The notes beneath the pieces were generated by a model. It saw only the letters and a list, made by a program, of their open reading frames with translations, ran no database searches and was not told where the DNA came from. A DNA stretch of 15,401 bases from a virus (taxonomy: Duplodnaviria > Heunggongvirae > Uroviricota > Caudoviricetes): IMG/VR virus record IMGVR_UViG_2547132277_000010; one strand, given 5' to 3'. The translations under genes were made by a program, and so were the position numbers. Numbering within the stretch: the stretch's first letter is position 1; each line of letters starts with the position of its first letter. Of this stretch, positions 1 to 14,018 are shown in pieces.

Positions 1-192
1 TCAGGAGCATTTCTGATTAACGCCACCGTTAAGAATCCACCCTTCAACAGCTTCACGAAGGTATGATTTGGGGTGGGTTCTGACTGGCTTCGGAAATCCG
101 TGTCGTTTGGTATAGTTCCAGATTGTCTGACGTGATGAAACACCGAGCTTGTTCATCACTTCTTTCTCAGGAATCAGGCTGGTATCGGTCAT
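1..192 (-). CDS. AlpA/Xis-like small HTH protein (excisionase / prophage regulatory protein family), 63 aa
   Basis: Complete ORF with TGA at bases 1-3. Small basic protein with the WNYTKRHGFPKP-type motif typical of AlpA/Vis/Xis-like proteins. Sits at the int-proximal end of the leftward operon; an integrase would lie beyond the left edge. Recognition from memory only. Confidence 0.7.
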   Translation of the reverse strand: MTDTSLIPEKEVMNKLGVSSRQTIWNYTKRHGFPKPVRTHPKSYLREAVEGWILNGGVNQKCS

Positions 193-269
193 CTTAATTC
201 TCCAGGCAAAAAGAAACCGCCATATAGCGGCTATATCAGATATGTACAGGCCTCATCGAGTGTGAGGCG

Positions 270-614
270 TTAGTCCTTGCGTAGCTCGCTGATTCTTCTG
301 TAAGTCTCTGGTGCTTTGTTTCCGTGTATCTTCATTTCAGACTTCAACAGAGCAACGAGGGAATCCCATTCGTTGAGGATGCCTTTGAATGCCGGAACGC
401 GCTTTGCAACCTTGTCGAATGAATCTCTGATTTCTGGAGTCTGCTCAACAAGTGCAACGCATCGTCTGAAATCGGCTGCGTCATGTGGAGCACCGAAGCT
501 ATGACCATAGATATTCTTTTTCAGTCCACATGCGATTGAGGCAAGAGTTGCGCTACTGATGCCAACATCGCCAGTCGATTGCCATTTCAAAACCTTCATA
601 GCCAAATCTGACAT
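270..614 (-). CDS. hypothetical prophage protein, 114 aa
   Basis: ATG at 614..612 preceded by GGAGA with about 6 nt spacing. No family recognised. Lies in the position of lambda ea/accessory genes between the recombination genes and xis. Confidence 0.6.
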   Translation of the reverse strand: MSDLAMKVLKWQSTGDVGISSATLASIACGLKKNIYGHSFGAPHDAADFRRCVALVEQTPEIRDSFDKVAKRVPAFKGILNEWDSLVALLKSEMKIHGNKAPETYRRISELRKD

Positions 615-619
615 TTCTT

Positions 620-652
620 GTCTCCATAAAACAAAACTCGCCGTAGCGAGTT
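620..652 (-). terminator. hairpin (7 bp stem AACTCGC/GCGAGTT, loop CGTA, 635-652) followed on the minus strand by a U-rich tract; candidate intrinsic terminator or attenuator
   Basis: Inverted repeat read directly from the sequence; the reverse complement of 620-634 is TTTGTTTTATGGAGA. Located between the 92 aa membrane ORF and the 114 aa ORF. Confidence 0.4.
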
Positions 653-772
653 CAGATAAAAGAAAACCCCGCGAGTGCGAGGATTGTTATTGTCTTTTCT
701 TCGTGCATTTGTCGCACTTTCGGCACCATCCAGATAGGCACATCCGTCCGCAATTAACACATATAGGCCACA

Positions 773-1051
773 TCATTTTTCCTCTTTTGGTTTATGAATC
801 TGAATGGTCATGCCGCTTTGAGTGGTGACTACAATGACAGAACCAGGCTGAAGACTGTTAAGATTGAATGCTTCGTAAAACGAATCCAAGGCCAGCGCTT
901 TTTTATTCTTTCGGTTCCACCAACGCCATCCCTTGCTACAGGCTACACTGACAATCCACTGCCCACTCCTGTAAGCCATATAAAACCAGATGAGCAAAAC
1001 CTGAAGGAATGCTATCCAGTCAATAATCGTATATTTCGCGAAGGAGTACAT
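773..1051 (-). CDS. small membrane protein, 92 aa (one N-terminal hydrophobic helix)
   Basis: ATG at 1051..1049 shares one base with the TGA of the upstream DUF551 ORF (TGATG) and is preceded by GGAGGTGA; the track's start at 1054 is a GTG one codon upstream. Hydrophobic stretch IIDWIAFLQVLLIWFYMAY. Confidence 0.55.
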   Translation of the reverse strand: MYSFAKYTIIDWIAFLQVLLIWFYMAYRSGQWIVSVACSKGWRWWNRKNKKALALDSFYEAFNLNSLQPGSVIVVTTQSGMTIQIHKPKEEK

Positions 1052-1347
1052 CACTTCACCTCCTGCTGTGGTGCTGCTGGCATTTCACGCCAGTGCGTAA
1101 CTGAGTGCGGATCCGGATATTCGGTGCCATCATCCCAGCGATTGCCATTCCACATTGCAGACCACATCTCACCGTCTTCATACATGACCATTACCGGAAT
1201 TAACTTATCCGGCATTCGCTCACTACAGCTTATCCAACTATCCGGAGTTACCGGATAGTTGCCGGGTTCTTTAATGTGCAAGCGAGGCTCACCATCTTTT
1301 GGTTCAGGCCACTGGCGCTTCATGTTGATCTTCAATTTATCTTCCAT
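1051..1347 (-). CDS. DUF551-like phage protein; start uncertain (ATG at 1347 or 1323; the track's ATG at 1506 lies inside the upstream annealase gene)
   Basis: C-terminal region WISCSERMPD...VMYEDGEMW...NGNRWDDG resembles the DUF551 domain common in enterobacterial prophages. The upstream gene ends at 1367, so an internal Met start is most likely. Confidence 0.5.
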   Translation of the reverse strand: MEDKLKINMKRQWPEPKDGEPRLHIKEPGNYPVTPDSWISCSERMPDKLIPVMVMYEDGEMWSAMWNGNRWDDGTEYPDPHSVTHWREMPAAPQQEVK

Positions 1348-1366
1348 AGCAGCGGTAATTTCAGCA

Positions 1367-1930
1367 TCACTGATACCAGCACGGCGCTGTGCATCCCACA
1401 ACCGATGGAGATTTCTGGTTGGTATTTTCTGGTGATGGTTTGTTAACTGATGCTGGGATTGCCCATCCCGGCAGCGATGGAGGGAGCCAGTAAAATCCTG
1501 TTCCATCCTTCAGTTTTGCCCTGTGCCACCCCTGCTTTTTATCGAGAGATGTTTGTGCGAAACCTTCCTCAAGGTTATACAGATACCGACCGATTCCCCA
1601 CTGAACGGCAGCGCGCTTCATTGCACCGGAACGACCACCTTTGACGGCTTCTACCTGCGTGTTTTCAGCAGCATCCCATTTGGTTACCCATTCGGAATCA
1701 ATCTTTATCGATATGCCGCATTCAACGCCGCCGTTGTTGGGAATATCGCGGTATTCATTGCGCCATCCTGCTTTGCCGCAAACATCGTCCAGGCGTTTCA
1801 TGATTGCCCGGTTCGTGACATAAGCCAGCACCATAGCCCACACTTTGCCATCGCGTGTTTTACCGCTTTGCTGTATTCGCCATTCGATATCTTCAGGGCT
1901 GAATGGCTCATCGAATTTATTCAAATCCAT
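1367..1930 (-). CDS. Rad52/Rad22-family single-strand annealing protein (Sak-like recombinase), 187 aa
   Basis: ATG at 1930 preceded by GAGGTG. The translation has the Rad52/Sak-type N-terminal annealing-domain character (from memory). It occupies the bet position of a lambdoid pL operon. Confidence 0.8.
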   Translation of the reverse strand: MDLNKFDEPFSPEDIEWRIQQSGKTRDGKVWAMVLAYVTNRAIMKRLDDVCGKAGWRNEYRDIPNNGGVECGISIKIDSEWVTKWDAAENTQVEAVKGGRSGAMKRAAVQWGIGRYLYNLEEGFAQTSLDKKQGWHRAKLKDGTGFYWLPPSLPGWAIPASVNKPSPENTNQKSPSVVGCTAPCWYQ

Positions 1931-1938
1931 AATTCACC

Positions 1939-2109
1939 TCAGAATGGACATGGCCCAAGGAAATAACGCTGATTTAATACTTCGACTCGGGACAAATTAA
2001 GGCATACCCGCATTCCTTCGCGGTCACCATTATGGCGATACCAGAGAGCTTTCTGCGTGTACATGCGTCTCTGTAACTTGCTCTCCTTCACTGTGGTTGC
2101 AAGTGACAT
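1939..2109 (-). CDS. hypothetical small protein, 56 aa (MSLATTVKESKLQRRMYTQKALWYRHNGDREGMRVCLNLSRVEVLNQRYFLGPCPF)
   Basis: Translated by hand (below the track's size cutoff). ATG at 2109 preceded by AGGAGA with 5 nt spacing; its TGA lies inside the annealase RBS. Overlaps the 52 aa ORF by 80 nt in another frame. Confidence 0.4.
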   Translation of the reverse strand: MSLATTVKESKLQRRMYTQKALWYRHNGDREGMRVCLNLSRVEVLNQRYFLGPCPF

Positions 2110-2188
2110 GAATATCTCCTTCGTTACCGATTAAATCTTTCATCTGACGAATGAATTCTTCGTCTGACCAGTTATCTGTAAAACTCAT
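2030..2188 (-). CDS. hypothetical small acidic protein, 52 aa (MSFTDNWSDEEFIRQMKDLIGNEGDIHVTCNHSEGEQVTETHVHAESSLVSP)
   Basis: Translated by hand. Its ATG overlaps the TGA of the Kil-like ORF (ATGA), suggesting translational coupling. Sits in the lambda gam position. Confidence 0.4.
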   Translation of the reverse strand: MSFTDNWSDEEFIRQMKDLIGNEGDIHVTCNHSEGEQVTETHVHAESSLVSP

Positions 2189-2337
2189 TTCCTGCGATAC
2201 CACGGAAGGTTGATAGCTGATTTTATCGCTTTATTTGCTTCAAGCCACATTTTTGAATCACCAATAAATCTGGCTATTACTGCTTTGTTTTGTGCTGCAC
2301 GAAGCATCTGGTGATTGATGGCTATTTCATTGCGCAT
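2185..2337 (-). CDS. kil: Kil-like small protein, 50 aa (MRNEIAINHQMLRAAQNKAVIARFIGDSKMWLEANKAIKSAINLPWYRRK)
   Basis: Translated by hand. GGAGG lies 5 nt upstream of the ATG at 2337. It is the gene immediately after the cIII-like gene, as in lambda (cIII then kil), and has an FIGD-containing motif that I recall from lambda Kil. Recollection, not verified. Confidence 0.45.
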   Translation of the reverse strand: MRNEIAINHQMLRAAQNKAVIARFIGDSKMWLEANKAIKSAINLPWYRRK

Positions 2338-2456
2338 AACGCCTCCAGTTGTTTCTTTGCTGCTCTGATTAATTGTTTAACTCGGCGTGATAATTCAGAT
2401 TCGTGCGGGTAGAAAGCGGACATGACGCCGCTACCCGCGAGCTGAAAGTGCATCAT
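2322..2456 (-). CDS. cIII: cIII-like protein (FtsH/HflB inhibitor family), 44 aa (MMHFQLAGSGVMSAFYPHESELSRRVKQLIRAAKKQLEALCAMK)
   Basis: Translated by hand. AAGGAG lies 6 nt upstream of the ATG at 2456. The pattern LAG-x7-P-x-ES-x-L-x-R(I/V)-x-x-LIR parallels lambda CIII (AIAGWPVAGCPSESLLERITRKLRDGWKRL, from memory). Overlaps the kil-like ORF by 16 nt. Confidence 0.6.
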   Translation of the reverse strand: MMHFQLAGSGVMSAFYPHESELSRRVKQLIRAAKKQLEALCAMK

Positions 2457-2523
2457 GGGTAACTCCTTATATTTGATTGCATAACGAAAAACGCCTCGAG
2501 TGAAGCGTTATTGGTATGCATAT

Positions 2524-2547
2524 AAAAAGGCCCTCACATTGGAGGGC
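2524..2547 (-). terminator. GC-rich hairpin (GCCCTC / loop / GAGGGC) followed on the minus strand by UUUUU; tL-like terminator or attenuator between the N-proximal genes and cIII
   Basis: Stem 2530-2535 pairs with 2542-2547; the plus-strand AAAAA at 2524-2528 is a U-run on the minus strand. A weaker hairpin AACGC/GCGTT at 2490-2509 lies next to it. Confidence 0.35.
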
Positions 2548-2609
2548 AAAGAAGATTTCCAATAATCAGAACAAGTCGGCTCCTGTTTAGTTACGAGCGA
2601 CATTGCTCC

Positions 2610-2637
2610 GTGTATTCACTCGTTGGAATGAATACAC
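2610..2637 (-). other. perfect 9 bp inverted repeat GTGTATTCA / TGAATACAC with a 10 nt loop; candidate RNA processing or regulatory hairpin in the cIII leader
   Basis: Read directly from the sequence; no flanking U-run on either strand, so not a canonical intrinsic terminator. Confidence 0.3.
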
Positions 2638-2651
2638 AGTGCTTATTCGTA

Positions 2652-2966
2652 TTAATAAAACACCCAATTTTCTGTTTCTTGGTTGTGTCCAAAGTTATAT
2701 TCAATATCTGGTGTTGATGTATCAATATTCTTCATCCCATCAACAAGAGTTGATACAACAGCCAAATCTTGTTTGATTCTCATCAAATGGTATTTCTTCC
2801 GGCGCAATAAACTTTCAATGGCAAGTTTCTTCGTCGGGAATGCAAAAGATCTTTCTGCATTTTTTGCTACTTTCTTAATTGCATATCTATTTCTCCTTTG
2901 TTTCCATTCCTGTAACCACTGATTTGGTGCTGGTTTAAAATTAACAATCCAATGCGCAGGAACCAA
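2652..2966 (-). CDS. hypothetical basic protein, 104 aa; doubtful start (TTG); may be the downstream half of a frameshifted gene together with 2867..3187
   Basis: The track ORF begins at TTG 2966 with no in-frame ATG until M62. The reading frame is open back to a stop at 2999..2997 and overlaps the 3' end of the 106 aa ORF. Confidence 0.3.
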   Translation of the reverse strand: MVPAHWIVNFKPAPNQWLQEWKQRRNRYAIKKVAKNAERSFAFPTKKLAIESLLRRKKYHLMRIKQDLAVVSTLVDGMKNIDTSTPDIEYNFGHNQETENWVFY

Positions 2967-3187
2967 CCATGCATAATGCTCTGTCTGATGAAAAGCTTAT
3001 ATTGAAGTGCGAATATTTTGATTCCATCTTCTTCAACTGTCGCTTGGAATCTCCAGAAAACAGGCATTCCATCATGTTCAGTTTCTGATTTAGGAAAAGG
3101 TACGCTCCATGATTTTGTCATATCTAACCTCAAATAAGTGGTTTGCTGCCAAAACAATGAACCATCCGGAAATTCCAGATAGTTCAT
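2867..3187 (-). CDS. hypothetical protein, 106 aa
   Basis: ATG at 3187 overlaps the TGA of the upstream 74 aa ORF (ATGA). Its last ~33 codons overlap the 104 aa ORF and look less protein-like. Confidence 0.5.
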   Translation of the reverse strand: MNYLEFPDGSLFWQQTTYLRLDMTKSWSVPFPKSETEHDGMPVFWRFQATVEEDGIKIFALQYKLFIRQSIMHGWFLRIGLLILNQHQISGYRNGNKGEIDMQLRK

Positions 3188-3408
3188 AATTCACTCTTCA
3201 ATACTTCCAACTTACTAATCGCCGAAAGATATCCGCGCTGATAGGGCATCATCATTCCTTCGAGCTTGCCACTTCTTAACTCCTCCCTGAGCAATTGTAT
3301 TGCTTGATCAATAACCTCTGCCTTAGCGTCCTTTATGGCTTGCTTGCGGGGCTTTGCTTTCTGCTTTGGCAGATTTCTCAAGCATGATGGAATGTATGTC
3401 TGATTCAT
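3184..3408 (-). CDS. hypothetical small protein, 74 aa, immediately downstream of N
   Basis: ATG at 3408 (the track starts one codon earlier at GTG 3411). AGGTAAG lies upstream. No family recognised. Confidence 0.55.
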   Translation of the reverse strand: MNQTYIPSCLRNLPKQKAKPRKQAIKDAKAEVIDQAIQLLREELRSGKLEGMMMPYQRGYLSAISKLEVLKSEL

Positions 3409-3411
3409 CAC

Positions 3412-3795
3412 TTACCTGGCTGTCAGTTGTTTTGATTTCCGGTAGCCTGCTGCGTAAAGAGCTACATTTGGAAGACATACACCAGTTTCTGGTTGCTTAT
3501 GTCCAAACTCATTCGCGTACACAATGGCCGCTCGCTCCAGATTGCGTCTGTATTCTTTCTGTTGCCAGATCACGTCCTGTGCCATGAACTTAATTGGCTT
3601 AGCGTCTTCTATGCGCTCAGGCGTTTCGTGAGTACCTTTAGCCTGAATCTGCGCTCTGCTTAGAGTAGGGCGGTGTAATACTTCTGAACTTATTGCTTCT
3701 TCGCGGGCCAGCACGCCGTTAGCTAATGCCTTTGCCTTTAAACGCTCACGACGACGAGAACGTGAATTGCCTTTGAACTGAGTTCTGCGTGTCAT
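3412..3795 (-). CDS. N: N-type transcription antitermination protein (P22 gp24-like), 127 aa
   Basis: AGGAGG lies 5 nt upstream of the ATG at 3795. N-terminal arginine-rich motif (NSRSRRRERLKAKALA) and C-terminal LPNVALYAAGYRKSKQLTAR, matching the P22 gp24 C-terminus LPGVALYAAGHRKSKQITAR as I recall it. Confidence 0.85.
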   Translation of the reverse strand: MTRRTQFKGNSRSRRRERLKAKALANGVLAREEAISSEVLHRPTLSRAQIQAKGTHETPERIEDAKPIKFMAQDVIWQQKEYRRNLERAAIVYANEFGHKQPETGVCLPNVALYAAGYRKSKQLTAR

Positions 3796-3960
3796 ATAGA
3801 CCTCCTGATGAACTTTGGTGGTGTGGTAGGTGGGAGACCCATTTCGACCTGTTTCGGCCTACTTCAATTCGGCAATAGTCCCGCAGGCCTCGCCGCTTTA
3901 CGTGCGACATATTCCTGTCCATGAACCCTTCACCACACCCCAAAGTTCACTTTGGTTATT

Positions 3961-3975
3961 GCGCTTTGTCAGCGC
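3961..3975 (-). promoter_or_regulatory. nutL boxB hairpin (minus-strand RNA GCGCUGACAAAGCGC)
   Basis: Plus strand gcgctttgtcagcgc. On the leftward transcript this is a 4 bp GC stem with loop UGACAAA, identical to the P22 boxB as I recall it. Lies between the candidate pL and N. Confidence 0.6.
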
Positions 3976-4044
3976 CGTAGATTCTTGCTTGAATCGTTGT
4001 ATATTCACCGCCCTGGTGAGTAGTGCGTCCTGCTGATGGCGATA

Positions 4045-4083
4045 ATAATGAACCAATAGTTCGATATTATCAAGAACTATTGG
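4045..4083 (-). promoter_or_regulatory. candidate pL promoter (-35 TTGATA at 4073..4068, 17 bp spacer, -10 CATTAT at 4050..4045) overlapped by a 10 bp inverted repeat operator CCAATAGTTC-N11-GAACTATTGG
   Basis: Hexamers and inverted repeat (4053-4062 / 4074-4083) read from the sequence. The core AGTTC-N11-GAACT recurs in the cI/cro intergenic region as CAGTTC-N11-GTACTG. Confidence 0.4.
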
Positions 4084-4256
4084 TACGAATTTTTGTGATT
4101 TATTAACTCTGCGAAGTATGATTTTGATATATAAGGAAATTTATTTTTGTAAATGTGGCTGATGAAGGTTATGCGGCAGGGATCAGAACTGCATGGTTTA
4201 GCGAATTACATCAATAAATACAATTGGTTATGTGTTTTTTTTGGGGCGAGAGGCAA

Positions 4257-4286
4257 AGAAAACCCGGCGCTGAGGCCGGGTTTTTC
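4257..4286 (-). terminator. bidirectional intrinsic terminator (AAAA-AACCCGGC-GCTGAG-GCCGGGTT-TTTTT) ending the cI / accessory-gene operon
   Basis: 8 bp GC-rich stem with runs on both sides, placed directly after the stop of the 258 aa ORF. Confidence 0.65.
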
Positions 4287-5062
4287 TAGGCTACCAGAGA
4301 CTCAATCCAAGAGTCTCTGGTATGGAATGGCAACACTCGTGCGGTATCATTAAATAGTAGTGATAGTTGCTGTAGCTCAGGTGTTAACCCATCGCTGTCA
4401 ACTATTACAAATCTATTGTTTATGTCAGGAACGACCTGACTTAAGTCAACAATCTTCCCAACTGTTGAGTGGGCAGTATTCCATCCCTTACTGCTGGCAA
4501 GGCTTACCGTAAACCCGCGTTTTGGTGGTATTAGTCGAGACTCATTCCTTAGCGTTAACGGAACAGTAATGTTATGCCCACTAATACCTTTCACTTTTTC
4601 CTTTAAGGCTAGTCGCTTCCCAAGCCCTGCTGATTTTAAGTAACTGATTACACATTTTTCGAACTTATCGTCTTTGACCTCAGCATACCAATCAGCAGTT
4701 TGGGCGGATGCAAGAATCCCACCACGAATAACATTTGCAGTTACCTGTCCAACGGACGACTCATCTGCCCACGCAGATATCTCTCCAGAGTCATTTAATG
4801 AAATTCCTTGCGAAGCGAGTGATGACCTGATCAGATCAATTTTCTTTTTAGTCAGGTGGATGCCGCGTGATTCAATATTCATCAATGTATCGCAGTAGTC
4901 TGTAACCCTATACTGACCACTCATCTCTTGAACGAATACACTTATCTGCTCACAATCATCGTAGTATGTGAATGGACTAATAACGCGCAGCAACGTGTCG
5001 CTCATTGGGTGGCATTCAAACCCGAGCTTAGATATGACTGTTGAACACGTTACATTTCCCAT
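4286..5062 (-). CDS. hypothetical protein, 258 aa; distal gene of a two-gene accessory cassette in the rexAB-equivalent position
   Basis: ATG at 5062 lies 10 nt upstream of the stop of the 180 aa ORF (13 nt overlap); AGGT is upstream. No family recognised and no obvious transmembrane segments. The locus is visibly more AT-rich than flanking phage DNA. Confidence 0.75.
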   Translation of the reverse strand: MGNVTCSTVISKLGFECHPMSDTLLRVISPFTYYDDCEQISVFVQEMSGQYRVTDYCDTLMNIESRGIHLTKKKIDLIRSSLASQGISLNDSGEISAWADESSVGQVTANVIRGGILASAQTADWYAEVKDDKFEKCVISYLKSAGLGKRLALKEKVKGISGHNITVPLTLRNESRLIPPKRGFTVSLASSKGWNTAHSTVGKIVDLSQVVPDINNRFVIVDSDGLTPELQQLSLLFNDTARVLPFHTRDSWIESLVA

Positions 5063-5592
5063 GATAACTGACCTGATTTATCTTGATTAGGTAAAGGTGG
5101 GCTGCCTTCATATATGATATTAAGCGCCTCGCAAAAATAATTCCAGTAGCCAAAAAAATCATCTGGCTTGATGTTCGTTTCAAGCTTAAGTGCAATTTCT
5201 TCCCCAGCTGATTCGAAGTACATGTGATAGTGAGGACCTCGAGCCACCTCAACAAAATCTGGATGGTTCACTATAGATTTATTACGGTGTGGCTTGTTAT
5301 CCGCAGGGTACGGATCAAGCGCGTAAATGCGCCTGTCATGAAGAAACATCACAAATGAAATCTTCACTATATCCACCCCTTCAACGATAGGAGGACGCCA
5401 GTGAAGCATAAATCTTATGCCTGTGATTGGGTTGCCAATTTCATCAAAAGCTTTGAGATCCAATTTAAACCAGATTGGGGTTCGTCCCTCACTTCCGGTC
5501 CATGTAACTCCGCTAAAAGTTACTTTTTTCAAGCGAGTAATAGCTTGGTCAACCTCTTTCTGGGTAGGCTTAAAGTCGCCTTTTTTAGCCAC
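5050..5592 (-). CDS. hypothetical protein, 180 aa; proximal gene of the accessory cassette downstream of cI
   Basis: Longest ORF begins at GTG 5592 with no nearby in-frame ATG; GGTGA lies about 9 nt upstream. Same strand as cI, 97 bp downstream of its stop. No family recognised. Confidence 0.7.
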   Translation of the reverse strand: MAKKGDFKPTQKEVDQAITRLKKVTFSGVTWTGSEGRTPIWFKLDLKAFDEIGNPITGIRFMLHWRPPIVEGVDIVKISFVMFLHDRRIYALDPYPADNKPHRNKSIVNHPDFVEVARGPHYHMYFESAGEEIALKLETNIKPDDFFGYWNYFCEALNIIYEGSPPLPNQDKSGQLSWEM

Positions 5593-5689
5593 TGATTCGT
5601 ATCACCATGAAAGTTATTGTTAATACCTGTGCTTCTTGTCACCCAAACGTCTCTTCAGGCCACTGGCTATCAGCTATGTGACGATGAAG

Positions 5690-6397
5690 TCACGAACTTT
5701 TCAGCCACTCCCTTGCCTCGATGTCATCCAGATGGCGAGATTGCTTCAGAATACCAGCCACATACTCCACCTTTGCTACTTGATGATAAGGCAACGTTAT
5801 TGGCCTATGGTCCTGGTTGATGCTTGTAAACTGGTATTCTCCGTCTCTGTCATAGCCAAGAACTTTGATCATGTTGTGTCCTTCAACGGTTCTGACAAAC
5901 ACCTCATCACCCGGGAATACTTTGGTGTTAGGCTCAATGAGTACATATTCTCCTGATTTTATTCTAGGCCACATGCTGTCTCCTTTCACACGAAGACCAA
6001 AGGCATCTGGATCATCGCTATAAATCTTGAGCCACCCATCGCGCTCTTCGGTCATCTCGATGGCACCATCAACACCAAGAATTGCCTCACCAACCACGCG
6101 CACTAACCCTTTTTTTAATTTGCCAACAAATGAAAGAGTATCTTCATCATTCGCTCCATTTAACGAAGTGCCGTGCTGAAGCCAAACAACATCAACGTTT
6201 AGAAATTTCGCAAGCGCATTCATTTTTTCCTGACGCGGTAAAGACTCAGCATTAAACCACTTGCTAACGCCTTTGGACGAAAGAGAAAGGGCACGGGCTA
6301 TAGCCATTCCCCTACCATGTTCATCAAGACCAGCTTCTTTACAGGCTTGCGCTAGCCGCTGGGCGAATTCTTTGCGCACTTTTTCATTCTGAACCAT
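5690..6397 (-). CDS. cI: CI-type prophage repressor (N-terminal HTH, C-terminal LexA-like S24 peptidase domain), 235 aa
   Basis: HTH region MAIARALSLSSKGVSKWFNAES and C-terminal GDSMWP...VLIEP motifs typical of autocleaving repressors. Divergent from the cro-like gene. No Shine-Dalgarno before the ATG, consistent with a leaderless pRM transcript as in lambda. Confidence 0.9.
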   Translation of the reverse strand: MVQNEKVRKEFAQRLAQACKEAGLDEHGRGMAIARALSLSSKGVSKWFNAESLPRQEKMNALAKFLNVDVVWLQHGTSLNGANDEDTLSFVGKLKKGLVRVVGEAILGVDGAIEMTEERDGWLKIYSDDPDAFGLRVKGDSMWPRIKSGEYVLIEPNTKVFPGDEVFVRTVEGHNMIKVLGYDRDGEYQFTSINQDHRPITLPYHQVAKVEYVAGILKQSRHLDDIEAREWLKSS

Positions 6398-6404
6398 GAG
6401 TACG

Positions 6405-6457
6405 ATACTAAAGCACTTGCAAAAACTTTCAGTTCAATCATAATGTGTACTGAAAGT
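6405..6457. promoter_or_regulatory. OR/pR/pRM switch region: candidate pR (-35 TTGCAA 6417-6422, 16 bp spacer, -10 CATAAT 6439-6444) with operator-like inverted repeats
   Basis: Inverted repeat ACTTTCAGT (6425-6433) / ACTGAAAGT (6449-6457) and the AGTTC-N11-GnACT arrangement shared with the pL region. A weak pRM -10 (TAGTAT) would place the start at the cI ATG. Confidence 0.5.
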
Positions 6458-6475
6458 ACGAAAAAGGATATTCCT

Positions 6476-6703
6476 ATGCAAAATCTTGATGAGCCGATTA
6501 AAGGTGTCGGCATCCCTGAAGTTGCGAAGGCTTGTGGAGTTAGCGAAAGGGCTGTCTATAAGTGGCTCAAAAACGGCTTCCTCCCTAAGACTGAGTTTTT
6601 TGGGAAAACGAAATACGCATCAAAAATCGAAGAGATTTCTGGTGGCAAATATCAAGCAAGCGAAATGCTTGAAATAAGCAAAAAGAACCTTCTGGCTGCA
6701 TAA
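6476..6703 (+). CDS. cro: Cro-like HTH regulator, 75 aa (start at the internal ATG 6476, not the track's 6443)
   Basis: AAGGA lies 8 nt upstream of ATG 6476. HTH VAKACGVSERAVYKWLKNG. First rightward gene, divergent from cI. Confidence 0.75.
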   Translation: MQNLDEPIKGVGIPEVAKACGVSERAVYKWLKNGFLPKTEFFGKTKYASKIEEISGGKYQASEMLEISKKNLLAA

Positions 6704-6710
6704 GTAACAC

Positions 6711-6756
6711 CGCTATTTTCACAATGGACATTCGTCCTACGTCGCTGACAAAGCGA
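6711..6756 (+). promoter_or_regulatory. nutR: boxA-like CGCTATTTT (6711-6719) and boxB hairpin UCGCUGACAAAGCGA (6742-6756)
   Basis: The boxB loop UGACAAA is identical to the nutL boxB loop. Located directly after the cro stop, as in lambdoid phages. Confidence 0.55.
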
Positions 6757-7183
6757 GCCCCAAGATATCTCCTCTCTGGTTATCTGCATCATCGTCTGCC
6801 TGTCATGGGCTGTTAATCATTACCGGGATAACGCCATCGCCTACAAAGCCCAGCGCGACAAAGCCACATCCATCATCGCTGACATGCAGAAGCGTCAACG
6901 TGATGTAGCAGAACTTGACGCCAGATACACAAAGGAGCTTGCTGATGCTAACGCGACTATCGAAAGTCTCCGCGCTGATGTTTCTGCTGGTCGTAAGCGC
7001 CTGCAAGTCGCCGCCACCTGTGCAAAGTCAACGACCGGAGCCAGCAGCATGGGCGATGGAGAAAGCCCAGGACTTACAGCAGATGCTGAACTCAATTATT
7101 ACCGTCTCAGAAGTGGAATCGACAGGATAACCGCGCAGGTTAACTACCTGCAGGAGTACATCAGGACTCAGTGCCTGAAATAA
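6749..7183 (+). pseudogene. Rz: Rz (i-spanin) homolog truncated at the 5' end; an internal ATG at 6884 could give a 99 aa product lacking the membrane anchor
   Basis: Translation [22 protein letters not shown]...RQRDV...YTKELADA...AGRKRL...QC closely parallels lambda Rz (from memory). The frame opens only after a TGA at 6746-6748; the first ~9 codons and any ATG/GTG/TTG start are absent. Confidence 0.75.
6945..7130 (+). CDS. Rz1: Rz1 (o-spanin) outer-membrane lipoprotein embedded in the +1 frame of Rz, 61 aa
   Basis: AGGAG lies 8 nt upstream of ATG 6945. Signal-peptide-like N-terminus with lipobox LVVSAC followed by a proline-rich mature part ([12 protein letters not shown]), the hallmark Rz1 architecture. 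Confidence 0.75.
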
Positions 7184-7215
7184 TTTTTTTGCAAATCACA
7201 AAGTCCATTTAATGA

Positions 7216-7238
7216 GCCTCGCGATGCGGGGCTTTTTT
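7216..7238 (+). terminator. intrinsic terminator after Rz/Rz1 (GCCTCGC-GAT-GCGGGGC followed by TTTTTT)
   Basis: Hairpin with one G-U pair followed by a six-T run, about 30 nt after the Rz stop. Confidence 0.55.
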
Positions 7239-7385
7239 ATGTCCGCAGTAAACACGCTTCACACGCGCGACTTATGAACACAGAACCTTTCAGGATGACC
7301 CTTGAGGATGCCGGTTTGGTGATCGGTGCCTTTCTGTGGGCCGGAATCCTGTGTGACAAGGTTCATCACTAAAAGGTGATCACTG

Positions 7386-7916
7386 ATGAAGTACCCAACA
7401 GTTATTGTCAATGGTGTGTCCGTTCGTGTTGATGAGGATGGACGCTACAACTTAAACGATCTCCATGCAGCAGCAGTTGCAAATGGAGAGGCTACAGAGC
7501 AACAGCGCCCAAGCCAGTTTTTGCGTAGCGCGCAGATAAAACGCTTCATAAAAGCACTGGAGGCCAAAGTGCAAAAAAGCACTTTGGAACAAATTCAACC
7601 ACTTAAAATAATCAAAGGTGGTGCAGAACCAGGTGTGTGGGGTGTTGAACTTCTGGCAATCAGATATGCAGCATGGATTAAGCCGGAATTTGAAATCGAA
7701 GTTTATGAAGTTTTCAAAACGGTTGTCCGTCTCGGCGTTGGCGCAATGTCCCGTCTGAATAGAATCGATCACATCATCAATACTGAAACCAAAGCGATAA
7801 GCCAGTGCGCAAGCCAAATGGCTAAGTGGGGCGTTGGTGGGCGAAAAAGATTGCTTCATGTTGCACGTGAGAGAGCGGCAAATGAAGTGCAAATGTATTT
7901 GCCCGGAATGGTGTGA
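7386..7916 (+). CDS. KilA-N domain protein, 176 aa
   Basis: AAGGTG upstream of the ATG. N-terminal region (RYNLNDLH...FLR...KGG...GVWGV.LLA..YAAWIKPEFEIEV) fits the KilA-N consensus as I recall it. Confidence 0.7.
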   Translation: MKYPTVIVNGVSVRVDEDGRYNLNDLHAAAVANGEATEQQRPSQFLRSAQIKRFIKALEAKVQKSTLEQIQPLKIIKGGAEPGVWGVELLAIRYAAWIKPEFEIEVYEVFKTVVRLGVGAMSRLNRIDHIINTETKAISQCASQMAKWGVGGRKRLLHVARERAANEVQMYLPGMV

Positions 7917-8103
7917 TTTCGCAGGTTAATCCAGTTTTTGCATTACGGCAGTACCGCGAAACAACCCAAGCCAGTAAGTGGGGAAATAACACTGGCAGCC
8001 ACTGAAAGATGAACCTCCTGCCTGATGGCAAAAAAGATTCTTTGTGGTGGCGGACTGATGGAAAGACATCTTAATCAAGCAACCACTCCACAGGGTCATA
8101 ATT

Positions 8104-8499
8104 ATGAACGACCAGCAAATCGAAAAAGAAATCGTTGAGAAAGGCAAAACGGCACCGCGTGTAACACCCGAGAAAATTGAAGGCCTCATTTGCAGTGAGC
8201 ATTTTTTCACTGCTGCGCAGGGTGACCACCAGGCTAAAGAAGATGACCTTATTTATAATCCGGAGCCTTATGTCGAAGCCACCCCTGATGCTCTGCACCT
8301 TCTCACTTTCTGCGTATTGGTACTGAAGAATGGCTTCACCGTTACCGGAGAGAGTGCCTGTGCAAGCCAGGAAAACTTTGATGCAGAAATTGGTCGGAAA
8401 ATTGCGCGTGAAAATGCGGTTAACAAAATTTGGATGCTGGAAGGTTACTTGCTGAAGCAGAACCCGACTATTCCAGTTACTCAATTCCTTGTGGTGTAG
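8104..8499 (+). CDS. phage gp49-like (Phage_gp49_66 family?) protein, 131 aa
   Basis: Compact ORF directly upstream of the portal gene. Family assignment is from memory and uncertain. Confidence 0.45.
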   Translation: MNDQQIEKEIVEKGKTAPRVTPEKIEGLICSEHFFTAAQGDHQAKEDDLIYNPEPYVEATPDALHLLTFCVLVLKNGFTVTGESACASQENFDAEIGRKIARENAVNKIWMLEGYLLKQNPTIPVTQFLVV

Positions 8500-8505
8500 G
8501 TTGAT

Positions 8506-10749
8506 ATGGCAGAAAAAAAGATGACTGACTGGCATCGCAAGGTGCTGTGCAACTTTGATAATGCCTGGTCAGCAACGCAGGATATGCGTGAGCAGATTAT
8601 TGAAGCTCAACGTTTCGTCCGGGTGTCCGGCGCACAGTGGGAAGGCAGCACAAACGCTGGTTACTCATTTGATGAAGGCAGGTTTGAGCATTACCCGCGC
8701 TTTGAGCTGAATAAGATTGCCCGTGAATGTGATCGCATCATTGGCGAGTATCGACAGAATCGCATCAGCGTTAAATTCAGGCCGAAGGATGACAAGGCAT
8801 CGGAAGCGTTAGCCGAAAAGATGAACGGCAAATTCCGCGCTGACTATCAGGAAACATCCGGTGGCGAAGCGTGTGATAACGCATTTGATGATGCTGTAAC
8901 GGGCGGATTCTGTTGTTTCCGCATGTGTGCCGATTACGAAGATGAAATGGACCCAAGTAACGAGCAGCGACGCATCAGCCTTCTTCCTGTTTACGACCCG
9001 GCCACATGCGTCTTCTTCGATCAGGACAGCAAGCAATATGACCGCTCTGATGCTATGTGGGCTATGGAAATGTTCTCCATGACGCCTAAAGCGTTCGAGG
9101 CTGAATACCCTGATTCCATCGCGGCAAGCCTTTCTCGTGATGACACTGGCACTCAATATGACTGGTCAACTCCTGATGCTATCTATGTTGGTCGCTACTA
9201 CGAAGTTCGCATAGAGAAGGTGAAGCTCACAGCATGGCGTAACCCTGTTAGCGGAGAAACGGCAATCTATGATGAAGATCAAATCAAAGATATTGTCGAC
9301 GAGCTGACCGATGGTGCATTCGAACTGATTGGCGAGCGAACGGTGAAGAAGCGCCGCGTTTATTGCGGTCTTCTGTCTGGCGCTGAATGGCTGGAAGAAC
9401 CGAAGCGTATTCCGGGCGAACATATTCCTCTCATCCCGGTATATGGGCGTCGATCATTTGTTGATAATCAGGAGCGAATCGAAGGTCACGCAGCAAAAGC
9501 GATGGATGCACAGCGTCTTGAGAACCTGATGGTTTCCATGATTGCAGATAACGCTACTCAAGCTGGCGGTGATGGCATTCCTGTAGTTGATGTTGACATG
9601 ATTCCTGGTCCTCTCGCCACTCATTGGGCGGAGCGCAACAAAAAGCGCCCGGCGTTCCTGCCGATGGTCAGTCTGAAAAACAAAAACGGAGATATTACTG
9701 CGCAGGCTCAGGTCAGCAGTTATACGCCTCCGACACAAATGCCTCCAGCTCTTGCCGGACTATTGCAGTACACCGGAACGGCTATTCAGCAAATTACAGG
9801 TGCGTCGCAGCTTGAGAACATGCCGAGCAACGTCGCTACCGATACCGTTGATAGCATCTTTAACCGGATGGACACGCAGTCCTATATCTACATGGACAAC
9901 ATGGCTAAATCCATGCGCCGTGCTGGCGTCGTGTGGCTTTCTATGGCTCGTGAAGTCTATGGCAGTGATGCGCCGATGCGTATCGTTAATGAGGACGGCA
10001 GCGATGACGTGGCGCTGATGACTGGTGAAGTGGTTGACCGTCAGACAGGGCAGGTTATCGCGCTTAATGACCTTTCGCAGGGTAACTATGAAGTGACTGT
10101 CGATGTTGGCCAGTCGTTCGCTACTCGCCGTGATGCAACGGTTAAGTCGTTACTTTCCATGCTGGCACTTATCTGGCCACAACGGGCGTTCATCCACTGG
10201 CGCATTCAACTGGCAAAAAGTCTGACCGAGTATAATCGGGTCTATCAATCTGCATTCTCACCGAACTTACTCGAACGCCCGCGTCTGGAAAGCCATCTAC
10301 AAAAACTCCTGACCGATGCCGTGAAAATGCGTGGGCTGATTGCGCCCGCCAGCAAAGAAACCCGTATTCCAAAATCGATATATGAAGGTATCCAGACCAT
10401 TAATCGCAATCTGGTTTGTATGCTGGAGTTGCAAATCAATGCATACTGGGCCACGCGCCCCAGCCATTTCGTGTTATTGAACGCGCAAAAACTTCGTGAT
10501 ACCCAGCATATGATGCAGCAAATACTGCTGAGCCTTGTTCATGCGCTGTACGAAGGTAATCCGCAGCCGGTTTTTGCCAATACGGAAAAATTGAACGATG
10601 CTGTGGAAGAGCTGCGTCAGTTGCTGAATAACCACCATGACCTGAAGGTTGTGGAAACACCAATCTATGGTTATGTGTGGCTGAACATGGAAACGGCACA
10701 TCAGCTTGAGTTGCTATCGAATCTGATTTGCCGGGCCTTGCGCAAATAA
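8506..10749 (+). CDS. P22 gp1-type portal protein, apparently chimeric: portal-like to about residue 555, then ~190 residues of unrelated sequence
   Basis: N-terminal FDNAWSATQDMREQ..., central RRVY...GEHIPLIPVYG and ...VDVGQSFATRRDATVKSLLSML parallel P22 portal segments (from memory). The C-terminal tail (from about 10170) lacks the Q/E/A-rich portal barrel and looks like a different soluble domain. Confidence 0.75.
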   Translation: MAEKKMTDWHRKVLCNFDNAWSATQDMREQIIEAQRFVRVSGAQWEGSTNAGYSFDEGRFEHYPRFELNKIARECDRIIGEYRQNRISVKFRPKDDKASEALAEKMNGKFRADYQETSGGEACDNAFDDAVTGGFCCFRMCADYEDEMDPSNEQRRISLLPVYDPATCVFFDQDSKQYDRSDAMWAMEMFSMTPKAFEAEYPDSIAASLSRDDTGTQYDWSTPDAIYVGRYYEVRIEKVKLTAWRNPVSGETAIYDEDQIKDIVDELTDGAFELIGERTVKKRRVYCGLLSGAEWLEEPKRIPGEHIPLIPVYGRRSFVDNQERIEGHAAKAMDAQRLENLMVSMIADNATQAGGDGIPVVDVDMIPGPLATHWAERNKKRPAFLPMVSLKNKNGDITAQAQVSSYTPPTQMPPALAGLLQYTGTAIQQITGASQLENMPSNVATDTVDSIFNRMDTQSYIYMDNMAKSMRRAGVVWLSMAREVYGSDAPMRIVNEDGSDDVALMTGEVVDRQTGQVIALNDLSQGNYEVTVDVGQSFATRRDATVKSLLSMLALIWPQRAFIHWRIQLAKSLTEYNRVYQSAFSPNLLERPRLESHLQKLLTDAVKMRGLIAPASKETRIPKSIYEGIQTINRNLVCMLELQINAYWATRPSHFVLLNAQKLRDTQHMMQQILLSLVHALYEGNPQPVFANTEKLNDAVEELRQLLNNHHDLKVVETPIYGYVWLNMETAHQLELLSNLICRALRK

Positions 10750-10920
10750 TTCCTAAACTTCAGAATCATCTTGCTGCTGCTTCGATTCAGCAAGGATAAA
10801 GGGTATGATAGTGAAAAGGGATAAAAGCATTGTCATCTGCGGCAGCTATGAGTAATGTTGGCCCTAACGAATAGCGGTTGCTTAAACGAATCCGACTCTC
10901 ACATTATCAGGGGTATAAAA

Positions 10921-11250
10921 ATGGAAACTACCAAGCCTTCATTCCAGGACGTACTGGAATTTGTTCGTCTGTTCCGTCGTAAGAACAAACTGCAACGTGA
11001 AATTCAGGACGTTGAGAAAAAGATCCGTGACAACCAGAAGCGCGTCCTGTTGCTGGACAACCTGAGCGATTACATCAAGCCAGGGATGAGCGTTGAAGCA
11101 ATCCAGGGCATCATCGCCAGCATGAAAGGTGACTATGAAGATCGCGTTGACGATTACATCATCAAAAATGCCGAGCTCTCCAAAGAACGCCGCGATATCT
11201 CCAAAAAGCTGAAAGCTATGGGCGAAATGAAAAACGGCGAAGCGAAGTAA
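10921..11250 (+). CDS. yeeX: YeeX-like DUF496 protein, 109 aa (start at the internal ATG 10921)
   Basis: The translation [28 protein letters not shown]... matches E. coli YeeX as I recall it; the length is 109 aa from this start. Confidence 0.7.
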
Positions 11251-11263
11251 TTCCCGTTTTATT

Positions 11264-11292
11264 CAATGAGGGTTGCCCGGCAACCCTCATTG
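11264..11292 (+). other. perfect 13 bp stem-loop (CAATGAGGGTTGC / CCG / GCAACCCTCATTG) 14 nt after the yeeX stop
   Basis: Read directly from the sequence. No clean U-run follows, so it may be a structured 3' end or a small repeat element rather than a canonical terminator. Confidence 0.4.
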
Positions 11293-11350
11293 CTCATTGA
11301 TTCTTATCTGTGTATCACCGTCATCATTTTCATCTGAGAACCAATCGAAA

Positions 11351-11707
11351 TTAACAACAGCCTTCTTCTGTATGCAGCAAGGCAAAAAGTTCTGTAACTC
11401 CATTGTTATTAACTGCACTGGTTACTAACACGTTGTGCGCTCCAGCTTCCCGTAACCAACTTTTCACCAAAGATATTTGTTCCATGCCGGCTAAATCTGC
11501 TTTGGTTACTACTCCAATGACAGGGTGATTCATGGCCCGGTAGGGCGTTTTTACCTCTAATTCCTGCTTCAGCGCTGAGATTCCTGCTTGTTGCCGGAAA
11601 AGCAGGCACCTGCCGTCTGAACGGTATCGATCCGGAAGCGTATCTGCGCCATATTCTGAGCATACTGCCGGAATGGCCCTCCAACCGTGTTGACGAACTC
11701 CTGCCAT
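11351..11707 (-). pseudogene. fragment of a YeeP/YkfA/YfjP-type GTPase (C-terminal portion only)
   Basis: Contains VIGVVTKADLA...HNVLVTSAVNNNGVTELFALL, like the G4/G5 end of this GTPase family. The N-terminal part is junk and a second overlapping frame (11409..11726) is also open, indicating a degraded gene. Confidence 0.35.
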
Positions 11708-12147
11708 GGAACGTAGTTCTCACCAATAAATAAGCGTCAATACGGTGCTCCGTTGACGCTTACTTTAATCCGTTTTCTGAGCTTAGATTTTTCTGTTCCT
11801 ACCCAGACCGTGGATTTGGAATTCATTTTTTGTCAGGTCAATGCTAATCGTTAAAACGGCCATAACGCACCTCCACTGGAAGGTTTATCAGTAATATCCT
11901 ACCGTTGCTTCATGGTCGGGGCGTCCATTCCATTATTATCGGTTTTCCTTTCTGTTTATAAATGAAAACGCCAGCTGTATTCAGGCTGGCGTCAGGGGAA
12001 ATGAAGCCTGTTGAGTGAGATTCACCGGTTCTGGTGCAGAAGCTGCAGATGGCGCAGGGTAAGGACATCTTCTCTTGCCTGCTTAATACAGGACAACAGT
12101 GCTGTTTCTGTGGTTAATGGCACTATACCCTGCATCACTGCATTGTC

Positions 12148-12342
12148 TTACAGCAACTGGTGAGGGCTGGCATAAGTTGCCGGTGTTTCGGTAGAGTCAC
12201 GGTCATCCACCACGCGGAGTGAATAACCTTTTTCAGCGGCCTTATTAATCAGTTCAGTGATATTAACACCATCAATGTCAACGACAATGTGCCCCATATC
12301 CAGCGCCTGTACGTTAACGCTGTCGGCTTCCAGTGTCATCAT
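12148..12342 (-). CDS. yeeW: YeeW-like small protein, 64 aa
   Basis: Its ATG overlaps the TGA of the restored cbtA reading frame (ATGA). Position and size match the gene that follows cbtA in CP4-44-type islands. Confidence 0.55.
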   Translation of the reverse strand: MMTLEADSVNVQALDMGHIVVDIDGVNITELINKAAEKGYSLRVVDDRDSTETPATYASPHQLL

Positions 12343-12712
12343 TTCGCCTCCGGATACTTACCCAGGGTAATGTTATTTACCGTTCTGTAATTGTCGCGGG
12401 TCATCAGGCCGGTCGCCCTGCGAGCCCGGAGGATATCGATGCTGTTTATTAACTGAGAGCGGGTACAGGCGCTGAATCCCGGCTGGTCGGTAGCACCAGC
12501 GCGTATTTTTCCACGAGAAAGTTCACCGCATCACACAGTGAAATGCCTGCCTCAATATGCTGCTCAATCACACGTTCATCGGCAAAAGGTGTGTCATTCA
12601 GTGTGAGGCCATAGTGCTGGTCCAGCAGTCGGGACAGCAGTATCTGCCAGATTTCAACAGGAGACGGGCGAGAACTGGTCGCCTGCCCGGGTAATACAGG
12701 TAATGTTTTCAT
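12339..12712 (-). pseudogene. cbtA: CbtA (YeeV)-family type IV toxin gene disrupted by a 1-base frameshift near 12493
   Basis: The track ORF gives 87 aa ending ...[19 protein letters not shown]. The next frame continues [46 protein letters not shown], matching the YeeV C-terminus as I recall it. One base appears to be missing after GTGC. Confidence 0.7.
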
Positions 12713-12800
12713 ACTGAAGATTTTCCTGATATGCAGATATAAAAATGGAAAAGTGGCGTGGTGAAAACACCAGGCCGTAGCAGAAGGCTATTCTGGAGAG

Positions 12801-13169
12801 TTAATTTTTCATTTCGGGCGTCGGATAAACAGCCAGATAAACGTAACCACAACTGCTGAGGGTATCGGCTTTGCAGGTCAGCCCTTTTGCATACAGCGTG
12901 ACGGTATGCTGATGGCGGGGATTCAGTTCACCGCTGGTGAGCATGAGTTCCAGTTGTTTCATCAGCAGCGGAAAGGCCTGGTCCAGGTGGTACGCATCTG
13001 CATCGCTGAACAGGCCTCTGATACCGGCGCGGTCGGCAAGGTAATGCAACCGGTTACCCTCCTGCACCAGACGTGCCCCGAAACAGGGCGTCACGGTGCA
13101 GGGCAGCCCCCACCAGGGGCGGTCGTGATTGTCGTCGGGAAGTGTTGTCCCGGGGAGTGTGTCTGACAC
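12801..13169 (-). CDS. cbeA: CbeA (YeeU)-family type IV antitoxin, 122 aa
   Basis: MSDTLPGTTLPDDNHDRPWWGLPCTVTPCFGARLVQEGNRLHYLADRAGI... matches YeeU/YfjZ-family antitoxins from memory. Starts at GTG 13169 with AAGGA upstream. Confidence 0.85.
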   Translation of the reverse strand: MSDTLPGTTLPDDNHDRPWWGLPCTVTPCFGARLVQEGNRLHYLADRAGIRGLFSDADAYHLDQAFPLLMKQLELMLTSGELNPRHQHTVTLYAKGLTCKADTLSSCGYVYLAVYPTPEMKN

Positions 13170-13242
13170 GATAAAATCCTTACAGAAAATCGGCTAAGAA
13201 TGGTCCGGTAGTGGCGATAATTCTGCTCATCAGAATTCCCAC

Positions 13243-13464
13243 TCAGTTCAGGGTGACGCTCATCAGCCGGACATACGGACCAAAACTGTCCTTACGACGT
13301 TCAGCAAACACGGCCAGCACACCGGGAATATCCTGCACTTCACGACCGGTATACGCTTCAGCACTGCCATGCCAGCGGTATTTACCGGTACAGAACGGAA
13401 AAAGACGGGATGTCGGATGTTGTTGGTGAATACGCATGGCTTCACCACGGGTGATAATTTTCAT
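13243..13464 (-). CDS. DUF987 protein (YeeT/YpjJ/YkfH family), 73 aa
   Basis: MKIITRGEAMRIHQQHPTSRLFPFCTGKYRWHG... is typical of this family. GAGGT lies upstream of the ATG. Confidence 0.8.
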   Translation of the reverse strand: MKIITRGEAMRIHQQHPTSRLFPFCTGKYRWHGSAEAYTGREVQDIPGVLAVFAERRKDSFGPYVRLMSVTLN

Positions 13465-13526
13465 AATGGGATACCTCTGAAGACAGAAGATAAAAGTGAA
13501 AACAGGTGTGATGTGGTTGTGAAGGG

Positions 13527-14003: not shown

Positions 14004-14018
14004 TGTGCTTCTCTCCAT

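Follow-up and report, generated by a model that had tools for sequence, protein, structure and literature searches.

The window analysed here is a stretch of 15,401 nucleotides, virus record IMGVR_UViG_2547132277_000010. The genes of interest lie on its minus strand, downstream of the N gene, by which the early leftward (pL) operon is recognised; in a pairwise alignment this gene is 98.4% identical in nucleotides to N of phage HK97. The features of the region are:

3795..3412, minus strand: N antitermination gene (127 aa), matching Pfam PF25694 (N_peptide, E 9.8e-16)
3408..3184, minus strand: 74-aa ORF (75 aa with GTG 3411 as start)
3157..3187, minus strand: 14-bp hairpin followed by UUGUUUUGG, a terminator-like match in the 62-nt spacer after the 74-aa gene
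3187..2867, minus strand: 106-aa ORF, whose ATG overlaps the stop of the 74-aa ORF as ATGA
2966..2652, minus strand: 104-aa ORF with a TTG start (TTG 2966 is the first available start in its frame)
2490..2547, minus strand: two terminator-like hairpins (z = -3.24) 3' of the split gene described below, with cIII next

The ORF list and a direct check of the sequence agree with an earlier, sequence-only reading of this DNA on the positions and sizes of the three ORFs, the ATGA overlap, the TTG start and the overlap between the 106-aa and 104-aa ORFs, which is exactly 100 nt (2966..2867). As had been stated, the 104-aa frame stays open as far back as 2996, and it is bounded by a TAA at 2999..2997. 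The region was also rightly called AT-rich, with a GC content of 0.36-0.40 over 2550-3300 compared with ~0.50 in N. The first hairpin of the pair at 2490..2547 is the counterpart of a putative terminator annotated after HK97 gene 45.

The 74-aa ORF, which starts 4 nt past the N stop, is a real and separate gene. It was called as a separate CDS by PGAP in three E. coli genomes, and in two of these, VR50 and 09A19CPO009, a 74-aa CDS (WP_001077327.1) and a 156-aa CDS were annotated 62 nt apart. The window protein is identical to or near WP_001077327.1 and matches phrog_5305 (E 4.8e-38, no assigned function), and no match to it was found in Pfam, NCBIfam or PADLOC. A 74-75-aa ORF is kept in Enterobacter, Citrobacter and Leclercia at 58-99% identity, while the Shigella entry has 89 aa. 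The gene and the hairpin that follows it are carried by a discrete cassette of 260 nt (window 3413..3154), which stands in place of 28 nt of HK97 and is present in a minority of the relatives. The hairpin (3187..3157) has a predicted stability of -20.8 kcal/mol (z = -4.47), and none of 200 shuffled sequences was equally stable. In the variant found at locus L105 there are two changes, and inspection by eye indicates that pairing is kept in both via G-U. This hairpin has the look of a terminator or of the cassette's 3' end, and ATG 3187, the start of the 106-aa ORF, lies within its stem.

The remaining two ORFs have a common origin. Megablast of positions 2500-3900 against phage records returned two-piece matches of ~98% identity to HK97 and to many Stx phages, and a pairwise alignment of window 3153..2500 with HK97 gene 45 and its flanks gave 97.6% nucleotide identity with exactly one gap, of 1 nt. 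HK97 gene 45 translates as a single ORF of 156 aa (MTKSW...NWVFY). Residues 1-41 of its product match the 106-aa ORF from an internal MTKSW on and residues 43-156 match the open 104-aa frame. HK97 gp45 (AAF31125.1) is the same protein as 933W L0079, Stx2 phage 86 orf57 and WP_000167585.1, and it belongs to phrog_1636 (E 5e-112), a PHROG with no assigned function. The two fragments of the window match this profile at positions 1-54 (E 6e-25) and 53-156 (E 3e-71). A protein search with the joined translation, which the sequence-only reading had proposed to use, found the same family, with E 8e-102 and 99% identity to family sequence P0001, and identity to P0001-P0003 is 97-99%. Since both ORFs are pieces of one conserved gene, the arrangement is not due to chance. 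The parts of this split gene are:

2652..3121, minus strand: pseudogene of the HK97 gp45 / 933W L0079 / phrog_1636 family, 470 nt compared with 471 in intact copies
3131..3128, minus strand: ribosome-binding site GAGG, six bases before ATG 3121
3127..3125, minus strand: codon TTA, which is TGA in nearly all relatives (G-to-T at 3126)
between 2998 and 2997, minus strand: deletion of 1 nt (one T) at codons 42-43, placed by the alignment with HK97
2867..3121, minus strand: expected translated remnant of 84 aa, with 41 native residues (MTKSW...ALQY) and 43 out-of-frame residues, then TAG
2652..2996, minus strand: orphaned 3' part, 114 codons in the conserved frame (AFHQTEHYAW...NWVFY), aligning with family residues 43-156

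At the site of the deletion the coding strand of the window reads CAATATA^AGC, and HK97 and the intact genes read CAATATATAGC; the deletion allele is CAATATAAGC. The sequence-only reading had suggested, as one possibility, a protein of ~178 aa split by a frameshift near an A-run at 2990-3000. The split and its site were correctly seen, while the protein is one of 156 aa and the missing base lies inside a TATATA run and not in the A/T run next to it, at a site that is not a homopolymer. In this E. coli lineage the TATATA run at codons 42-43 (2997/2998) has lost a single T. With this T gone, translation from ATG 3121 would shift frame, giving 41 native residues and 43 codons out of frame before a stop at 2867, and the remaining 114 conserved codons would be left without an efficient start. 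Reading of the sequence before TTG 2966 showed no ribosome-binding site. The frameshift falls just before an invariant block of the family (F44, T47, Y50, P55, A56, W58), so that the out-of-frame tail displaces the most conserved part of the N-terminal domain.

The intact form of the gene is what is found in the relatives. A 61-nt probe centred on the deletion site was compared with phage records and with complete E. coli genome records, and the base is intact in 79 of 79 phage records and in all 592 complete E. coli genome records. The probe matches listed all span 62 nt and no record reaches at least 99% identity, so none of them carries the deletion. In IMG/VR, scanned for exact patterns, one contig has the deletion allele and at least 120 have the intact one, and a scan of species-representative genomes did not find the deletion allele. 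Among the loci that were fetched, the intact 471-nt ORF is present in 114/114 fully covered homologous genes. A large protein collection holds full-length homologs of 156-163 aa with 55-98% identity and 40 invariant columns, from Escherichia, Pectobacterium, Cronobacter, Brenneria, Rosenbergiella and Symbiopectobacterium. Thus the comparison of homologous regions suggested by the sequence-only reading gives a single longer ORF in both prophages and phages; the other outcome it had named, two separate conserved proteins with their own starts, is not what the homologs hold. Members of the family have an uninterrupted ORF of 156-163 codons, and in the window the 470-nt gene is broken at codon 42. 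The position that is typical of the family, between N and cIII with a terminator hairpin after the gene, is kept. The window and HK97 share the 97.6% identity over gene and flanks, the slot between N and the pre-cIII terminator, and the ribosome-binding site and start. They differ in that the window has one base fewer (2997/2998), an E11K change, a TGA-to-TTA change upstream and the extra 260-nt cassette with the 74-aa gene. The E11K change is non-conservative and affects a position that is E or D in 22 of 22 aligned family members, and it is private to the window clone among 120 loci with the gene.

One possible explanation is that the base was missed in sequencing or assembly and that the organism itself has an unbroken gene. 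An indel of one base within a low-complexity TA run would fit such an error, and so would the absence of the deletion from all complete RefSeq E. coli genomes and all GenBank phage records. Against this, the same deletion occurs together with the TGA-to-TTA and E11K changes in independent assemblies, and the site is, as mentioned, no homopolymer. Two further loci, L126 and L127 (GCA_049980685.1 and GCA_041455445.1), share 9,187 bases (9.2 kb) with the window at 100% identity. The sole IMG/VR contig with the deletion, L005, equals window positions 1..10749 except for 2 SNPs that lie elsewhere, at 3342 and 9950. The exact 106-aa product was found on 57 contigs and under several NCBI accessions, with a cluster of only 8 member sequences. 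We consider an artefact to be very improbable; the deletion is a real and clonally inherited mutation.

The sequence-only reading had the 106-aa ORF coupled to the 74-aa ORF by ATGA. The true start of the gene is ATG 3121, which follows the GAGG. In every relative except L044 this ATG is directly preceded by TTATTTGAGGTGAGAT or a close variant of it, which places a stop in the same frame two codons upstream of the start, and the stop is also kept in relatives with the same 74-aa cassette (L101, L002 and L105). The form GAGGTTAGAT is found only in the window clone and in L044, which has a different upstream module. The lineage-specific TGA-to-TTA change at 3126 removed this in-frame stop and is the sole source of the 22 extra codons and of the ATGA coupling: without the stop, the frame extends back across the spacer hairpin as far as an ATG that overlaps the stop of the 74-aa gene. 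The 106-aa ORF (to 3187) is thus the 84-aa remnant with a spurious extension of 22 codons. The coupling and the span of 178 codons are both accidents, and the view that the coupling belongs to the gene was not upheld, given the stop before ATG 3121 in nearly all relatives. The locus shows that translational coupling and a recoding site can both be mimicked by a pair of unrelated point changes.

The second part of this mimicry concerns recoding. A programmed -1 frameshift, which the sequence-only reading had listed among its options, would move ribosomes out of the frame of the 106-aa ORF and into that of the 104-aa ORF, giving a full-length fusion protein. The geometry is suitable, as a -1 shift leads from the first frame to the second and the 130-nt stretch that is open in both contains a canonical X_XXY_YYZ heptamer in phase:

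2939..2933, minus strand: heptamer T_TTA_AAC, in phase for a -1 shift

With two overlapping frames and an in-phase heptamer the window resembles dnaX and the phage tail-assembly chaperone pair G/GT, but it differs from them in that the arrangement is not conserved, that there is no stimulatory structure and that the fusion would be without the invariant residues. The two-frame arrangement is private to one clone: it is seen in 0 of 79 phage records and 0 of 592 E. coli records, with one contig as against at least 120 in IMG/VR, and every relative examined has a single frame. We judge the heptamer to be coincidental because it is made up of the N-F-K-P codons of the intact gene and is out of phase there. 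No stimulatory structure was predicted in the 83 nt after the heptamer (-4.2 kcal/mol, z = +0.66), where 150 of 200 shuffled sequences were at least as stable, and U_UUA_AAC without a stimulator shifts poorly in E. coli. The fusion itself would swap about 20 residues, including F44, T47, Y50, P55, A56 and W58, for out-of-frame sequence. Programmed frameshifting at this site is thus extremely unlikely, and the suggestion did not withstand comparison with the relatives, none of which shows the two-frame arrangement.

It had also been proposed that these are two genuinely overlapping genes, and one may think of them, or of a newly functional pair, as serving exclusion or anti-restriction. Both ORFs are predicted by gene finders and are entered in databases, with a PHROG of its own (phrog_37429) for the 106-aa product, and in lambda ral and sieB occupy the place between N and cIII. 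The cluster of the 106-aa product, however, has 8 members as against ~1,480 in the three closest intact clusters, and the last 43 residues of this product are an out-of-frame reading. In the places examined, every other occurrence of the exact 104-aa ORF goes with a gene whose 5' part is cut. As this ORF is present on 663 contigs, a widespread split allele had been suspected and was rejected: in the places examined the causes were others, namely contig ends (L132-L137), a rearrangement (L130), an IS insertion with a 5-bp duplication (L129) and an independent 4-nt deletion (L131). No similarity was found to lambda Ral, SieB, Ea10 or orf28, and there was no defence-model match. We regard a pair of true overlapping genes as hardly credible, and the proposal is not supported by the tail of the 106-aa product, which is read out of frame and only in this clone. 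The deletion and the lost stop codon together account for the 106-aa "protein", an artefact that has entered PHROGs and NCBI under entries of its own.

The comparison with lambda and P22 deserves a separate comment, as the locus had been equated with the ral/sieB/gene 17 region. The position supports this, and the window is like the lambda ral / orf28 / sieB / ea10 slot in its early leftward position, its AT-richness and its small interchangeable accessory genes; in E. coli O111:H8 TW05614, PGAP annotates a Ral-family gene between the 74-aa and the 156-aa genes. A link in sequence was not found, with no match to Ral or SieB and none to the lambda N-cIII region. In that region the 74-aa and 156-aa proteins have no similarity, with the best tblastn match at E 1.3 over 14 residues, and there was no tblastn match to the lambda ral region or to lambda sieB. 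No Ral family appeared among the Pfam and NCBIfam results at E <= 1, which held sub-threshold chance matches only, on the premise that these libraries hold a Ral model; likewise no SieB family appeared among the Pfam results, on the premise that the library holds a SieB model. In a tblastn search of the 156-aa protein against 50,697 phage records there was no Salmonella among the ten named groups, while three groups were nameless. The connection to exclusion or anti-restriction is one of position only.

The setting of the gene is that of a prophage in decay. In L126 and L127, which are longer than the window, an integrase adjoins sbcB. A cro-like gene (6443..6703) directly abuts an Rz gene without a native start, as the Pfam match to Rz begins at profile position 26 and its frame is open only from 6749. 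After Rz come KilA-N, a gp49_66-family gene and a P22-type portal gene, which ends at 10749, 105 nt before yeeX. Beyond yeeX lie the CP4-44-like genes cbtA/cbeA, a radC-like gene and an antirestriction gene. Genes O, P, Q, S and R and terminase genes are absent from the window. Truncated and decaying, this E. coli prophage is reduced to a remnant between sbcB and yeeX from which the genes for replication, late regulation, the start of lysis and terminase are already gone, and within such a defective remnant the loss of an accessory gene is expected. In a single-base indel, a dispensable gene, the loss of essential modules and clonality the window is like the frameshift pseudogenes of E. coli cryptic prophages, and there is no material difference from them. 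It is very probable that the 106-aa and 104-aa ORFs are the halves of one gene of the HK97 gp45 / 933W L0079 family, a recent pseudogene formed by a 1-nt deletion in a prophage remnant. In its intact form the gene belongs to the accessory genes of the N-antiterminated early leftward operon. The C-terminal 104 codons of the window copy are identical to those of many intact copies, which shows that the lesion is recent and is also compatible with continued constraint. Probably no functional protein is made and the loss would be neutral, though the 84-aa fragment or the TTG-initiated 104-aa fragment may have a residual function. For annotation, one frameshifted pseudogene (2652..3121) and a separate 74-aa gene should replace the three coupled ORFs. 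The split gene is an ordinary pseudogene of an already catalogued phage gene.

The intact 156-aa early protein is that of HK97 and the Stx phages; the HK97 gp45 / 933W L0079 family is present in Shiga-toxin phages. No named function came out of searches of the 74-, 106-, 104- and intact 156-aa proteins against Pfam, NCBIfam, PADLOC and PHROGs; the only real matches were to PHROGs with no assigned function, and the matches to PADLOC defence models were at chance level (E 0.009 and 0.016). A profile search of the PDB with the intact family gave nothing below E 0.26, and a literature search on HK97 gp45, L0079 and WP_000167585 found nothing relevant. The gene is annotated as hypothetical in every phage record matched by tblastn, and three distant relatives lie among early and recombination genes, a context that gives no functional clue. 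By an exhaustive profile search the family was placed in a wider superfamily of phage early proteins of ~135-165 aa, with 87 representatives at 50% identity and the motifs ...E-DG..., ...ET.C... and K..K..SRFAF.TK.EA...L..RK..Q..HL.R; the intact protein has a conserved tail, NFGHN-ETE-W-F. A first AlphaFold model, built with 22 close homologs, was poor (pLDDT 60.5) and was set aside. With 12 distant relatives added, the model reached pLDDT 91.5 and pTM 0.78, and it predicts the following elements:

residues 19-55: acidic three-stranded beta-meander
residues 58-74: short helices
residues 83-86: strand
residues 98-130: basic 33-residue helix

The predicted fold has no match among solved structures, and its structural relatives are uncharacterised phage proteins only. 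Our best guess is that the intact protein may be a non-essential early protein that acts on the host and consists of an acidic beta-sheet domain and a long basic helix.

The window copy is not the only broken one. Based on truncated database proteins, at least ten independent disruptive alleles of the gene are on record. The other lesions include different deletions of 1 nt (at codons 43, 44, 45 and 51), of 2 nt (at TTTTAAA) and of 4 nt, an A6-to-A5 change around codon 87, two junctions with IS or foreign sequence and an internal duplication. We read this repeated disruption as ordinary decay, because so many E. coli genomes have been sequenced. Another hypothesis, which we find rather unlikely, is that the protein is harmful to the lysogen when its expression is leaky, like Kil, and has repeatedly been selected against. 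Under the very deep sampling of E. coli the disrupted alleles do not separate counter-selection from neutral decay. In one 44-kb phage record, OZ035745.1, the match comes in 2 pieces spanning 467 nt; this phage appears to carry one of the disrupted alleles, which hints that the gene is dispensable.

The 156-codon gene of the HK97 gp45 / 933W L0079 family has been broken independently many times across public E. coli data. The disrupted alleles considered here were drawn from relative loci (L129, L130, L131) and from database proteins that are truncated products of the gene (P0026, P0028, P0030, P0035-P0041, P0073 and P0075). Among the lesions, several distinct 1-nt deletions cluster at codons 42-51, and two longer deletions remove 4 nt (at TGGTTGGTT) and 2 nt. 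There is also an A6-to-A5 change, together with an internal duplication; junctions with IS or foreign sequence interrupt the gene as well.

The spacer between the 74-aa and 156-aa genes is a recombination joint for cassette swapping, as shown by relatives that carry an inserted Ral-family antirestriction gene there (for example, at 1867-2067 of the E. coli O111:H8 TW05614 locus, L004). The 74-aa cassette itself ends in a structured element:

3157..3187, (-) strand: 14-bp hairpin followed by a U-rich tract

This hairpin is very stable (-20.8 kcal/mol, z = -4.5) and is placed between N and the next gene in an N-antiterminated operon. The version in the relative locus L105 carries two substitutions, with pairing kept at both through G-U pairs. 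The hairpin may act as a terminator or as an RNA-processing site.

Upstream of N, a gene pair separates it from cI:

4286..5062, (-) strand: first gene of the pair
5050..5592, (-) strand: second gene of the pair
5690..6397: cI

The pair encodes a DUF1828 protein of 258 aa and a protein of 180 aa, and it lies in the slot that is filled by rexAB in lambda. Based on weak PADLOC matches to the candidate defence system PDC-M24 (M24B, E 5e-7; M24A, E 4e-4), the two proteins may constitute a prophage-encoded defence pair. The start codon of N is inconsistently annotated: the ORF is 127 aa long both in the window (3412..3795, (-) strand) and in HK97, yet for the N gene in this position PGAP gives, in some E. 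coli genomes, only a 90-aa "N peptide" of 273 nt (1234-1506 in the relative locus L003).

Judged over 6443..10749, the prophage is a remnant, and within the window it has no genes for replication, Q, holin, endolysin or terminase. The order of this stretch and of the one beyond it is as follows:

within 6443..10749: cro-like gene, then directly Rz without the native start, with an open frame only from 6749
after Rz: KilA-N gene, gp49_66-family gene and P22-type portal gene (complete, 8506..10749)
start of 10855..14498, immediately past the portal stop: yeeX (DUF496)
after yeeX: PduV/EutP-like fragment and cbtA/cbeA toxin-antitoxin pair
after cbtA/cbeA: radC-like JAB gene and antirestriction-family gene

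The gene set in 10855..14498 is a CP4-44-like island. The integrase end of the prophage, seen in two further assemblies that reach beyond the window (L126 and L127), adjoins sbcB, yeeD and yeeE.
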